NCBI GenBank assembly: GCA_963704165.1
Contig: CAVPHD010000001.1
Span: 637,072-701,071 of the forward strand
Direction: 5' to 3'
Origin: an uncultured delta proteobacterium
GTDB taxonomy: Bacteria > Myxococcota_A > UBA9160 > SZUA-336
DNA: 64,000 nt
The notes under the pieces were generated by a model that saw only the letters and a list, made by a program, of their open reading frames with translations, did no database searches and was not told where the DNA came from. Below are positions 49,987 to 56,616 of this stretch, piece after piece. Position 1 is the stretch's first letter, and every line of letters begins with the position of its first letter. The translations under genes and the position numbers were made by a program.

Positions 49987-51547
49987 CCCGACCCGCGCTC
50001 GCCGGCTCGACCGCGATCGTGCTGTACTTGGGTCTGGTGACGCCGGTGCTCGCACAGATCCCGGACGGCGACATGAACGAGGACGATCGGCTCGACGCCG
50101 CGGACGCGCTCATCATGACGCGAATCCTGGAGGGGACCGTGCCGGAGACGAGCGCAGAGCAGGCGCGCGGGGACATCGCGCCGCTGGAGCTCGCGCCGGA
50201 GACGCCCTCGGACCTGAACGCCGGGGACCTGATCCTGCTGCTGCGCGCGATTCGGGGGGACGACGTGGACGGAGACGGCGTGCCCGCAGACCTGGAGCTT
50301 GCCGAGGGCGCGAGCCCGTTCCGCGAGGACAGCGACCGGGACGGCGTGCCCGACGACGTCGAGATCCTCACGCTCGGCAGCGACCCCGCGCGGGTCGACA
50401 CCGACGCAGACGGCTTCGGGGACGAGATCGACCCAGACCCGGTGGCCGGGGTGGTGTTCTGGTACGGCGATCATCTGGGTAGCACGACGGTCCGCACGCG
50501 CTCGGACGGCGCGCTGCTGGAGCGCGTGGTGTACCGGCCGTACGGAGAGGCCGTCGCGATCGCGGGCGGCGCGGCGCAGCCGCCGGAGTTCGGCTACACG
50601 GGGCAGCGCTACGAGCGGAGCCTCGCGATCTACGACTACAACGCGCGCTGGTACGACCCCGCGCTCGGCCGCTTCCTGCAGCCGGATCCGATCGTGCCGA
50701 GCGCGACGAGTCCGCAGTCGCTCAACCGCTACGCGTATGTGCTGAACAATCCGATCGGCTTCACGGATCCGACGGGGAACTTCTCAATCAGCGGTACCTT
50801 CGGGGGCATCGGAAGCGCGTTCAACAGTGGATTCTCTAGCGTGAACTCGTTCTTCCGAAATGACCAAGGGCAGTTCAGCGTGCATCGGCTCAGTGATCCG
50901 CTGAGAATCTACCTCCCAGGGGCAGTCGCCGCGCCCATCGCTGGGATCATTGACGCTCTGGGGGGGCCTCACAGGCGGTTGTCGGAATAGGCACGCTCAA
51001 CGCGGAGCGAACTCGGCAAGGCCTGAGCGGCGTGGGACTTGGTGCGCTATCCGCTCTCGGACTGCGAGAGGCGTTCACTGAACGGTGGGAGAGAGGCATA
51101 CGTCAGACGTCCATTCCTCTACCGACCTCCATCAACGGGATGGTGAACTCAGTGGATATTCCAGAGAACGCGCGCGAGAACGGGATGCACGCCTGGCATG
51201 CGGGAACAAACGCCGCAGTCGCAAATCGATTGGGGCCTGCACTCGGGCCTGTTCAGGTGCTCGCTGGTCTCCTCCATGAGACGCCGCTCGACGCCGGGTC
51301 GTTCTCCGCGGAACAGCGACACCAAGGGAGTGTCAACCACCTGCTTGACTCGTCCAGCGACATCCTTGCCAACCTCTTTGGCCAAGCTGCCGGGTATCTC
51401 CTACCTCGATCCGCCGGAGCGTACATCTCACGCACCGTAGGGAACGCGATACCCGGCCCCCTTGACCGCGACCCGGGCGTCGGCGGCGCGGGCGGCTACC
51501 GCGGCAATCCAGTTGACGCCTGGGGAACAGGGCCTGGATATCCATGA
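49987..51547 (+). CDS. Rhs cassette 1: 5'-truncated Rhs core plus C-terminal toxin 1 (probable 1-bp loss in G-run 50960-50966)
   Basis: DHLGS, YRPYG, GYTGQR, YYNAR-like DYNARWYDP..GRFLQPD, NRYAYVLNNP..DPTG; adding one G joins the 51032-51547 ORF. Confidence 0.85.
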
Positions 51548-51918
51548 TGCCGCACTACTGGCGCTGCTGGGTTCTCGTCCTCGTGATCGTCACGACTGGC
51601 TGCCTTGGTACTGCAAGCACCATCCCGAACGGCGTCTACACTAGGATGGACGGTGGCGACTACCTTCAAATTAGCGACGACGAGATCCGTTTCTTCATCG
51701 CAGACGGGGCGCGGCCGCGAGAGGTTGTTGGCAAGACATCGTATACCTTCGGTTTCCAGCGAGACGGACGACTTCACGTGATCATCCGGTCGGCGGAACG
51801 AGATGATCTAGTTGGGCGTGTGTACTTTTTCTGGAACGGATCCGACTTCGCGATGTACGACCCGTCGACCGGGGTGACATCGAGTTTTTCGAGGCTCCAG
51901 GGCGGTGAATCGCCCTGA
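51544..51918 (+). CDS. Putative immunity lipoprotein 1
   Basis: ATGA overlap with the toxin stop; hydrophobic signal with TTGC lipobox; lower GC. Confidence 0.7.
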   Translation: MMPHYWRCWVLVLVIVTTGCLGTASTIPNGVYTRMDGGDYLQISDDEIRFFIADGARPREVVGKTSYTFGFQRDGRLHVIIRSAERDDLVGRVYFFWNGSDFAMYDPSTGVTSSFSRLQGGESP

Positions 51919-51983
51919 CCCCGCAACCGAGGGAGTCAGGCTCTTCGGCGTGGCAGCTGATGCAGGCTCGCTCCGCGCAGGTT

Positions 51984-53943: not shown

Positions 53944-54141
53944 TGACCTGATCCCCGAAATCTCCTCCGAGCGAAGCCAGAGAATTCTTGAACCGAAATG
54001 GGAAGAGCGGGATGCGGAAATCGAGATCTTCGACCGAGCAGCAAGCGGCGCACGCCGATCGACGCGCCGCTCGCTGTTCATCCCGGCAGTCCGAGTCCCT
54101 CGCGTCGCGATGATGTTGCGCAGGATGTTGTTCGTGCCGCC
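53944..54141 (+). repeat. Diverged ~200-bp direct repeat of 56731-56928 (3' end of acyl-CoA dehydrogenase plus downstream DNA)
   Basis: TGACCTGATCCCCGA..CTCCTCCGAGCGAAG..GATGATGTTGCGCAGGATGTTGTTCGTGCCGCC shared with 56731-56928. Confidence 0.9.
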
Positions 54142-56129
54142 ACTCGCGGGCCGCGCCTACACGTACAACGCCTTCGGAGAAATGACCCGCGCAACACAGA
54201 GCGGCGTAGCTCTAGCCGATCTCACCTACGACGCGAGCGGGCGGCGCACCAAGATCATCGATCGAACCCAGAACACCCCGGTCGTCCGCTTCCTGGTGAC
54301 GGACGACTTCGAGTGGGACGAGACGAGCAAGCTCGCAAAGATCCACATCTCGCTCGGCGGCTCGCTGATCGCTACGCGGCTCGAGCGGTTCGCGGCCCAG
54401 GCCGCCGCGCCGCCTGCCGCACCGATCGGGCGCGGGACCGGGTGGGGAATCGTGCTGCTTCCGGCGGGGATGGCGGGGCTGCTGCTCGGTCTGCAGCTGA
54501 TCCTCCTCCGGAAGCAGCGCGCCCCCGTGTCCCGACCCGCGCTCGCCGGCTCGACCGCGATCGTGCTGTACTTGGGTCTGGTGACGCCGGTGCTCGCACA
54601 GATCCCGGACGGCGACATGAACGAGGACGATCGGCTCGACGCCGCGGACGCGCTCATCATGACGCGAATCGTTGATGGGACCGTGCCGGAGACGAGCGCC
54701 GAGCAGGCGCGCGGGGACATCGCGCCGCTCGAGCTGGCGCCCGAGACGCCCTCGGACCTGAACGCCGGAGACCTGATCCTGCTGCTGCGCGCGATCCGGG
54801 GGGACGACGTGGACGGAGACGGCGTGCCCGCAGACCTGGAGCTTGCCGAGGGCGCGAGCCCGTTTCGCGAGGACAGCGACCGGGACGGCGTGCCCGACGA
54901 CGTCGAGATCCTCACGCTCGGCAGCGACCCCGCGCGGGTCGACACCGACGCAGACGGCTTCGAGGACGAGATCGACCCAGACCCGGTGGCCGGGGTGGTG
55001 TTCTGGTACGGCGATCACCTGGGCAGCACGACGCTGCGCACGCGCTCGGACGGCGCGCTGCTGGAGCGCGTGGTGTACCGGCCGTACGGAGAGGCGGTCG
55101 CGACCGCGGGCGGCGCGGCGGAGCCACCGGAGTTCGGCTACACGGGGCAGCGCTACGAGCGGAGCCTCGCGATCTACGACTACAACGCTCGCTGGTACGA
55201 CCCCGCGCTCGGCCGCTTCCTGCAGGCGGATCCGATCGTGCCGAGCGCGACGAGTCCGCAGTCGCTCAACCGCTACGCGTATGTGCTGAACAATCCGATC
55301 GGGCGAGTCGACCCGACGGGTAACGTCTCGGTGAGTGGGATCTTCGGCGGGATCGCGAGTGTCGCCAGATACGCGTTTTCACCTGTTCGCCACTTCGCAT
55401 CCGGGTTCGGTTCATCCTTCGCCTACAGCGCATTCGGCTTCGGCAGTGCCCCGAGCGGCTCCGGACTCGGTTTCGGAACCCGGGGCCGGCTTCGGTTCGC
55501 TAGTCGGAGCCGTTCCTGGAGTGACCGCGAATCTTCTCTCTGTTCCGCTCGGTGGGCTGGGGCGCGCCTTCGAATCACTGCCCGGTGTCACTGCAGGGGC
55601 TAGCTGGTTCTCAACAGCTGACCGAGCGCTGCGCGGGTATGGCAGCGGGGTCACGACGCGGGTGGACTCTATCAGCACGACCTATCGAAACCCGCTGTCC
55701 CTCCAGGCGAACGACATCGTCAGCGTCGGAGAAGGTCTGTTCGTGGGCAACCTAGGGGGGATCGTGAACGGTGCCATCGATGCGATTCCCGGCCTGGGCG
55801 GACCCAACGCCCAAGGAGCCGTCGATCTCGTGTCCGCGGTCGTACCCCGCTATGGCAGAACCGCGGGTCCGAACTACACTGGCGACCCACTCCACAATGC
55901 CGTGGACGTCGACTCTTCATCCCATGACCAGGAGTACGAGCGGTCATCATTCAGGGATCAGACTTAGTATGATCGCCAACTCACCCGAGATTTGACACGA
56001 AGCTTGGTGTCGGGGCCCCAACCCGGTGTCTACGGGCAGGCGTACCGACTCGCTGAGATCTCGCTGTTCTTGGTCAAGGCACCTGCTCAGGACGCCGCGT
56101 TCGGGGTTTACGATGCCCTCAACCGGTAG
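54142..56129 (+). CDS. Rhs cassette 3: longest truncated core plus PLA2-like toxin (frameshifts near 55480 and 55965)
   Basis: YTYNAFG, LTYDASGRR, TM insert, dockerin-like domain, core to DPTGN; the CT has PRYGRTAGPNY..VDVDSSSHDQEY. Confidence 0.82.
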
Positions 56130-56616
56130 CTCTCCGCTTGCAGACGCCTGTTCTACAGTGGCCATCGCCGCGATCCTGCTCCTGCTTCCAGGCTGCGCGA
56201 ACTACCGCGGCTATACCGTACACGTCGCGCCTGGTGACCCCGCGCGGGTTGAGAAGGCTGAAGTAATCGCCGTCCTGTCAGGAATTGAAAGAGTCGCCAC
56301 GAGCCTTCAACTTGAACGCCGCGACGACGATGCAATGAGGAAGCATCATCAGACAGCGATTCCCTCTGAACAGCTGGTTGCTTCCTGGACCAATCTGTAC
56401 AGGTCTACCGAGAGATATCGATCCGGGGTGTTTGTGACGGTGTTTGTAGATTCAGATCCGGCACAGATCCGAATAGTAATCAACGATTGGCAGCAGATAG
56501 GCGGAACTCCGTTGCTAGAGGCAGTCAGAGCGGCTGTCACCGCAGAGCTGAGTCGAACCTTCAAGGAGAGTCAGGTGAGCGTTGAAGCTCAATCGCTGGG
56601 ACTCTGGGCGCCATAG
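56113..56616 (+). CDS. Putative immunity lipoprotein 3
   Basis: Overlaps the toxin end; AILLLLPGC lipobox; lower GC. Confidence 0.7.
   Translation: MPSTGSSPLADACSTVAIAAILLLLPGCANYRGYTVHVAPGDPARVEKAEVIAVLSGIERVATSLQLERRDDDAMRKHHQTAIPSEQLVASWTNLYRSTERYRSGVFVTVFVDSDPAQIRIVINDWQQIGGTPLLEAVRAAVTAELSRTFKESQVSVEAQSLGLWAP

Follow-up and report, generated by a model that had tools for sequence, protein, structure and literature searches.

A decaying Rhs tip/immunity array with an internal signal-like linker in an uncultured delta proteobacterium, and a proposed separation of Rhs shell and cartridge

Array layout and core identity

The window analysed here is a 64,000-nt stretch of DNA from an uncultured delta proteobacterium (GCA_963704165.1, contig CAVPHD010000001.1, positions 637,072 to 701,071 of the forward strand), forming the last 64 kb of contig C1 of the genome under study, G000, whose assembly comprises 3.87 Mb in 12 contigs and is 84% complete. 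Between window positions 49987 and 56616 lie three Rhs modules, each consisting of a conserved core, a variable toxin tip and a partner gene regarded as a candidate immunity gene. This three-module array is confirmed in the sequence as first described, and the locus is an Rhs tip/immunity array in decay. Its components are as follows, the insert within core 3 being itemised in the next section.

49987..50780, plus strand: core 1, with the hydrophobic/AxA part of the internal signal (49995-50054), dockerin-like and TSP3-like parts and the Rhs core to DPTGN
50781..51547, plus strand: tip 1, a predicted domain of the lipocone type (SAA/DUF6973-like) in which H, E, D, N and G are invariant; the frame changes near 50960
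51544..51918, plus strand: Imm1, lipoprotein-like candidate immunity gene with a lipobox-like N-terminus; ATGA overlap with the tip 1 stop
51984..52550, plus strand: core 2, beginning midway through the dockerin-like part
52551..53237, plus strand: tip 2, predicted Tlde1-like L,D-transpeptidase domain in an open frame; PF10908 below cut-off
53238..53942, plus strand: Imm2, multi-pass membrane candidate immunity gene with 6-8 hydrophobic segments
54142..54442, plus strand: core 3, last YD repeats of the shell; weak PF05593 and TIGR01643 matches, 81% identity to G010
54995..55324, plus strand: Rhs-associated core (plug/aspartyl autoprotease) of core 3, ending in DPTGN; TIGR03696
55325..56130, plus strand: tip 3, predicted cysteine-free phospholipase A2-like domain; frame change at ~55478 and TAG at 55965, both contradicted by the mirror arm of the contig end
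56113..56616, plus strand: Imm3, lipoprotein-like candidate immunity gene with a lipobox-like N-terminus, resembling the gene behind a tip of genome G010

Self-BLAST of the window places the core starts at 49987 (core 1), 51984 (core 2) and 54142 (core 3) and yields gapless alignments of 825 nt at 95.3% identity between cores 1 and 3, 567 nt at 99.1% between cores 1 and 2, and 569 nt at 95.4% between cores 2 and 3, bearing out the near-identical cores with staggered 5' truncations reported in the initial annotation. Up to DPTGN, 20 of the 30 differences between cores 1 and 3 fall at codon position 3, a bias that indicates real divergence and not read error. All three cores match TIGR03696 (core 3: E 2e-22, 79.5 bits against a cut-off of 32.5), and each ends in DPTGN, an instance of the DPxG motif that defines the Rhs-associated core. 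The closest homologue of the array core, P0001, is labelled Myxococcota in its source. Divergence directly after DPTGN, as originally described, needs correction for cores 1 and 3, which stay alike for ~30 nt (about ten codons) more.

The best match between tips has E 0.011 and spans only the first 23 residues, characterising variable tips behind a conserved core. The cores have a GC content of 0.70-0.71, against 0.58-0.64 for the tips and 0.57-0.63 for the genes behind them; GC at third codon positions (GC3) is likewise lower in tips and downstream genes than in cores. The downstream genes, starting at 51544, 53238 and 56113, overlap or abut the toxin stops, in agreement with the earlier description of a coupled, lower-GC gene behind each tip, and all three are intact.

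The internal linker

What the initial annotation called a core does contain an Rhs core, but an insert of ~200 residues with membrane, signal, dockerin and TSP3 features went unmentioned there. It is complete in core 3:

54443..54538, plus strand: linker part 1, where a predicted membrane helix runs into a basic loop, a stop-transfer-like arrangement; the G010 homologue model shows the helix as well
54539..54598, plus strand: linker part 2, an internal segment that resembles a signal peptide and ends in V-L-A, with cleavage by signal peptidase I predicted after 54598
54599..54994, plus strand: calcium-binding repeats of dockerin-like and TSP3-like type; sub-cut-off PF00404 match (E 0.053), resembling the TSP3 regions of CglD/MtsD, with PF18884 in relatives

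The linker sits between the last YD repeats and the Rhs core, and full-length relatives with SpvB, propeller and RHS shell have it too. The order helix, loop, signal, dockerin recurs in 10/10 dockerin-type sequences aligned; helix, loop and signal occur without dockerin in L044-L046, L058 and L143-L145, and the signal part only in L147. L078 and L107, records from a Leptospiraceae and a delta-proteobacterium, have a lipobox-like Cys at the end of the second segment. A strict AxA rule accepts 10 of the 14 second segments and one of the 14 first segments; among the internal membrane segments of G000 it accepts 131 of 1371 (9.6%). These figures stand as description and are no formal test, the rule having been written after the alignment was seen and the sequences being related. 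In a survey of 30 loci of the class, chosen with nothing but the core model, 23 offered 300 or more residues ahead of the core, and seven of these informative loci carry the linker, one with a single long segment detected and four already known.

An AlphaFold model of the shell, linker and core of the G010 homologue has a mean pLDDT of 79, reaching ~90 on both sides of the insert and lower values inside it. The model keeps the Rhs fold across the insert, with YenC2 as the best match (E 2.5e-23) and other Rhs shells also matched. A MYXO-CTERM identity for the first helix, suggested by a resemblance (GC/CAG before the helix in L044-L046), was rejected, no such NCBIfam match being found.

Two further observations concern related genes. 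Orthologous SpvB-type Rhs genes with phospholipase A2-like tips are present in G000 (contig C3, L030 9535-16236) and G010 (contig C24, L058 2938-9822). On contig C9 of G000 (L031, ~9650-10300), two genes after the second long Rhs gene, a small gene opens with a signal-like stretch and continues through one RHS hairpin and TSP3-like repeats to a hydrophobic/basic tail.

A fully split form in other genomes

The junction marked by the linker is a gene boundary elsewhere. The split form is seen in two genomes of the class, G026 and G048, and in Proteobacteria. In genome G026, a gene of 1800 residues combines a signal-like N-terminus with SpvB, propeller and RHS and ends at the strand at which the linker sets in, and a shell gene of G048 has the same end point. 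Genes downstream in both genomes, termed cartridges here, read signal, AxA, core, DPxG and variable tip (13 N-termini aligned). In these two loci (L034, L036), three secreted-looking accessory genes come after the shell-only gene, and behind them lie tandem cartridges with no immunity gene in between.

A genome scan with the alignment of cartridge N-termini returned 76 loci. Its survey covered L074-L134 (61 of the 76, the 15 closest to the query being left out and a few giving no output) and identified 11 signal-bearing cartridges and 2 linkers. Four of the 11 cartridges stand directly behind a shell-only gene (L082, L091, L094 and L103), L091 belonging to the cultured Luteibacter rhizovicinus. 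TIGR03696 is absent from the four shells scanned and present in the two cartridges scanned, and shell and cartridge halves are complementary against continuous Rhs proteins in 5 of 6 pairs, L094 being unclear. The best 150 representatives for the L091 cartridge are all of at most 500 residues; for the 134 with a located core start, a hydrophobic stretch precedes the core in 134/134 and [AVS]xA in 122/134, counts biased by the signal contained in the query itself. The starred branches in a tree of 55 cores imply a minimum of three changes for the linked state and likewise three for the split state, the tree being built from hand-picked rows and 112-residue cores with weak deep support. The three states of one site, continuous, signal-linked and fully split, occur side by side.

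The shell-only genes at L082 (1319-4681) and L094 (5425-9846) end in additional domains (TSP3, Ig-like) and in a short hydrophobic tail, I..LLL(N/TD), that may be a sorting signal. Other splits (L085, L090) include a Lysobacter locus whose two Rhs halves each have a signal and are separated at a much earlier point, and a cartridge of signal, Ig-like repeats and core.

Toxin tips and candidate immunity genes

The three tips resemble a lipocone, a Tlde1-like and a phospholipase A2-like domain, the evidence being weak to moderate in each case. In tip 1, residues H56, E83, D110, N114 and G117 are invariant in a ten-sequence alignment and lie on predicted helices, corresponding to the lipocone pattern of His on H2, Glu on H3 and Asp, a polar residue and Gly on H4, as given in the available portion of PMC12419801. 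Atlas leads for this tip are SAA (PF00277) and DUF6973 clusters at 0.92-0.93, with recognition below the tool threshold; SAA itself is absent among the fold matches listed.

Tip 2 conserves H, T, G and C of the Tlde1 catalytic motif, H...(S/T)HGCh in the accessible part of PMC9638812. PF10908 matches it with E 0.0031, below cut-off, and is found on 17 of 43 homologues. In tip 3, G126, G130, D143, H149 and D150 are invariant in four sequences, reminiscent of the phospholipase A2 motif, a YxGxG-type loop with an HD..Y dyad. The tip 3 homologue of G010 leads to PF08398 in the Atlas (0.86, 180 shared features; a lead only), and the Tox-PLA2 cysteines (DxC[ST], CxxHxxxYxN; consulted sections of PMC3482391) are missing from the tip 3 of the window. 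Pfam and NCBIfam returned nothing for tips 1 and 3 or for the three partner genes, and PDB sequence searches matched no Tlde1 or PLA2 structure.

Among the 224 other genomes of the class, an imm2 homologue occurs in one, directly behind a 72%-identical homologue of tip 2. This membrane partner is presumably unlike Tldi1. Imm3 and the gene behind the homologous G010 tip share 24% identity over 168 aa (E 1e-5), and three more phospholipase A2-like tips are followed by similar lipoprotein-like genes, seen by eye and undetected by tblastn. The family leads and the exported-looking partner genes together suggest that all three toxins act on the envelope; the envelope targets proposed initially thus fit these leads, sub-cut-off as they are.

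Parent gene and secretion type

The initial annotation viewed the modules as orphans exchanging their C-terminal tips by recombination and proposed a search for the parental full-length gene. No intact parent with the same core was found in the 84%-complete assembly, where RHS repeats elsewhere are confined to genes on C3 and C9 with cores 39% identical; recombination of the kind proposed would need such a parent. The remark that no type VI secretion system (T6SS) gene is present extends from the window to the genome: neither TssC nor VgrG was found in the assembly at that completeness. TssC is present in two of five relatives; the five full-length relatives all have SpvB and no PAAR match. 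The array thus shows neither the VgrG/PAAR link nor the T6SS genes by which T6SS cargo is recognised.

SpvB, TcdB_midN and RHS are matched in 5/5 full-length relatives and FG-GAP in 3/5, with an N-terminal hydrophobic segment in all five relatives that have an intact 5' end. The sequence evidence fits a parent of the signal-peptide/SpvB (TcdB/TcaC-like) type, whose 5' part is absent from the window.

Flanks and history of the locus

The flanks and one spacer of the array retain the following elements:

49542..49811, minus strand: left flank, an internally deleted fragment of the neighbouring acyl-CoA dehydrogenase (ACAD) gene; within 57244-57613, 107 nt match at 98% and 148 nt at 86%
49813..49987, no strand: IS21-family remnant, a 175-bp inverted repeat (imperfect palindrome) whose right end abuts the start of core 1
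53944..54141, no strand: second copy (86%) of 135 nt of downstream DNA and the last 63 nt of ACAD, from self-BLAST
56731..56928, no strand: 135-nt downstream element and 3' end of the intact ACAD (minus strand, stop 56866), the right boundary of the inserted block

Matches to the 175-bp element occur in 22 other genomes out of the 225 of the class, and both element loci examined adjoin IS21 transposases over the curated cut-off. Core 1 begins exactly where the IS21 remnant ends. P450 and ACAD are adjacent, with no block between them, in 3 of 11 genus relatives and in one contig from the sequencing runs described below. Also within this block, at 47548-49535, are a 192-aa gene and a PQQ sugar-dehydrogenase-like gene, the latter frameshifted and ending in a hydrophobic/basic tail.

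A long gene of G010, whose tip and partner belong to the same families as those of module 3, shares 81% identity with core 3, which is both the most downstream and the most diverged core, as the tip displacement model predicts (PMC2935791, PMC5361080; available text of both). Since module 3 shares its tip and partner family with that long gene, it would be the oldest. Module 2 may then have arrived with the ACAD flank of its donor, pushing module 3 downstream; the segment at 53944..54141 is likely this donor flank. Module 1 would subsequently have displaced module 2, with the 5' shell-coding part lost afterwards. Module 1 is likely the main gene, decapitated at the IS21 remnant, and modules 2 and 3 its displaced tips. 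The locus in G000 is likely unarmed and at most an immunity bank.

Site-specific integration into ACAD was considered and rejected: both copies share 135 nt past the stop, which relatives lack, and no integrase was noticed among the open reading frames of the window. On contig C51 of G010 (L021 5272-6834), the orphan core that follows the G010 gene is interrupted just ahead of DPxG by what resembles, by eye, an IS66-type element.

Sequence quality and read data

Self-BLAST identifies 55377-63979 as an error-rich inverted fold-back at the end of contig C1, with 608 gap positions. It is centred near 59757 and carries hundreds of indels, and the second ACAD/dapL-like set beyond the centre is most likely an artefact; each of the 11 genus relatives has one syntenic match. 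The ACAD gene beside the array is frameshifted.

The breaks in tips 1 and 3 are likely base-call errors, judging from homologous sequence. The frame change in tip 1 falls at a run of seven G near 50960, which the homologues P0020 and P0021 cross in one frame. Tip 3 changes frame near 55478 and meets an in-frame TAG at 55965, reading on to 56130; its homologues in G010 and G019 are open, and the mirror arm differs at both breaks. Stop-codon readthrough at 55965 was rejected on the same grounds, the homologues being open there and the mirror arm reading differently.

Read data comprise three runs, each containing 5-6% of the words, whose contigs represent other strains; no RNA data set is among those listed. 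Together the contigs cover core 3 between ~54126 and 55347, the matches listed showing no gap, which demonstrates that the linker insert exists independently of this assembly. One run contig continues the core into a different tip; no module junction is bridged.

Two runs contribute contigs that match the first 255 nt of tip 2 (52551-52805) and then diverge, and genome G195 carries the same toxin domain as tip 2 behind another spacer, both suggesting a second swap point inside tip 2.

Proposed mechanism and alternative explanations

The locus is probably a remnant of an SpvB-type Rhs polymorphic-toxin locus, likely shaped by tip displacement and by decapitation at an IS21 remnant, with a linker predicted to split shell from cartridge. 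From the initial interpretation, this reading retains the Rhs tip/immunity array and envelope action; it departs from recombination with a parent and adds the internal signal-like linker that had been missed. In the intact parent, an N-terminal signal would start Sec export of the SpvB/propeller/RHS shell, and the helix with its basic loop would stop transfer, leaving the shell anchored in the membrane. The second hydrophobic segment would restart export, with signal peptidase cutting after AxA, and the freed dockerin/TSP3/core/toxin chain would complete the shell outside the cytoplasm. The core would then cleave at DPxG, releasing the encapsulated tip, such autocleavage being established for Rhs cores (e.g. 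PMC13018210, in its accessible portion). Lipid head groups or lipid carriers, peptidoglycan cross-links and phospholipids would be the targets of the tips, whose neutralisation in the periplasm or membrane would fall to the partner proteins. We give a slight preference to a split-Rhs system in general, with shell and cartridge exported separately, encoded as one polyprotein that signal peptidase would cut at an internal signal, as at this locus, or as separate genes, and one shell serving many cartridges with no recombination. The architecture is likely real as anatomy; the mechanism is what we infer from comparison of sequences.

Several observations weigh against this reading. The linker is missing from 16 of the 23 informative class loci and from the other SpvB-type Rhs gene of G000, whose G010 orthologue has it, indicating that it is dispensable in the family. 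Cleavage by signal peptidase is deduced from motif and comparative evidence, and at 7 of the 11 proteobacterial-type cartridge loci no shell gene appears in the fetched flank. No tip reaches a curated Pfam cut-off. The fold matches of tip 1 are weak (BteO, Z 6.3; the WLS-WNT8A chain 7kc4_D, Z 5.5; model pLDDT 60), and in tip 2 the second His of the Tlde1 motif is replaced by Ile, with shorter spacing than in the available part of PMC9638812. Only one of five tip 1 homologues is followed by an imm1 homologue. A promoter-like site was looked for at the array and none was found, no contig of the three runs, all from other strains, bridges any module junction, and the 84% completeness of G000 means that a parent may be unassembled.

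The linker could instead be a mere membrane hairpin tethering an uncut single chain, with the free signal-bearing core genes acting shell-less. The two helices do pair as a hairpin in the G010 model, 4 of 14 second segments fail the strict AxA rule, and the cartridge loci with no nearby shell are as such genes would require. Against a simple tether, AxA follows the second helix and not the first, the second segments of L078 and L107 end in a lipobox-like Cys, and shell-only genes end at the same strand and adjoin cartridges at six loci, where a shell-only gene would be devoid of cargo unless loaded in trans. Taken together, a tether of this kind is unlikely, though worth serious attention. Distinctly less probable is that the three modules are ordinary orphans of an unassembled full-length parent, still swapping tips with it. 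The incomplete assembly, the fold-back artefact that ends the contig 3 kb downstream and the orphan recombination demonstrated in Salmonella (PMC3967940, accessible text) would accommodate such a parent; the only other Rhs genes found, on C3 and C9, have divergent cores, however, and the site expected for it upstream of core 1 is occupied by the IS21 remnant and the ACAD fragment.

An array made by the assembler from strain variants, the misassembly that the initial annotation had itself raised, would be in keeping with the indel-rich contig end, the frameshifted ACAD, the ACAD 3' end inside the array, the same core with other tips in related populations and the unbridged junctions. Such a chimera is nevertheless disfavoured and improbable: the cores start at three different points and align gaplessly, the junctions lack long homology, one of them being the end of an insertion sequence, and the inner ACAD copy is 86% identical with its frame lost, as an old scar would be. 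Least probable is expression of one or more modules alone, as secreted cartridges or internal toxin-antitoxin units. Module 1 keeps the hydrophobic and AxA signal part, module 2 is open from an ATG at 51960, and relatives do have free cartridges; yet module 1 has no in-frame ATG, GTG or TTG ahead of its hydrophobic stretch, module 2 carries no signal, and neither a matching shell-only gene in G000 nor a promoter-like site at the array was found.

An orphan array is ordinary by itself; the linker is not. The split-Rhs reading, which is marginally the better bet and would make this a widespread and so far undescribed system, suggests a second route to Rhs toxin variation, in which a cartridge would be loaded in trans with no DNA rearrangement, and a T6SS-free export of envelope-active toxin, with enclosure in the shell only after leaving the cytoplasm. 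If this holds, numerous short genes of the 'RHS repeat-associated core' kind, now regarded as orphan fragments, would be functional secreted cargo and need re-annotation. The shell and cartridge pair of the cultured Luteibacter makes the idea directly testable.

Comparison with known systems

The array resembles the Rhs tip/immunity orphan arrays of Jackson et al. 2009 (PMC2935791) and Koskiniemi et al. 2014 (PMC3967940), as far as the available portions of these papers extend, in its near-identical cores of varying length and its unrelated low-GC tips after DPxG, each with a coupled gene. It differs in having no intact gene upstream, in the membrane/signal/dockerin/TSP3 insert of its core and in not being T6SS-linked. 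The tips resemble lipocone toxins (prok-SAA, TelC; PMC12419801), Tlde1 (PMC9638812) and parvovirus-type PLA2 (PF08398) in motif patterns and search leads, again within the accessible parts of these sources, but differ from all three families in having no direct match over cut-off.

Bacterial teneurin-like proteins are, in the consulted sections of PMC13018210, likewise Sec-signal YD-shell toxins with immunity genes and common in Myxococcota; they differ in their FN-plug/NHL superfold and single chain, with no internal signal described in those sections. The relatives share a signal-like N-terminus, SpvB, an integrin-like propeller and RHS with the TcdB/TcaC-like exported toxins (Zhang et al. 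2012, PMC3482391), a class for which the accessible text describes no internal signal or split, the word 'dockerin' not occurring there. The literature search, conducted on titles and the opening lines of abstracts with selected papers followed up, returned no description of an internal signal or shell/core split.

As in the TcB/TcC pair of ABC toxins, the shell would be completed by a second chain that brings the cargo, and the G010 model fits YenC2 best. Unlike TcC (~680 residues, RHS and core), the chain is split here ~110 residues before DPxG and consists of the core only; the split therefore lies inside the TcC-equivalent part, which sets it apart from an ABC (Tc) B/C pair. Each half also has its own export signal, with immunity-like genes behind, and no TcA, for which no search was made, is implied. 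The closest precedent for loading in trans, in the available text of PMC11067744, is YenB with YenC1-3, where an 'orphan' C subunit is loaded in trans and the authors suggest that the same may hold for other Rhs proteins.

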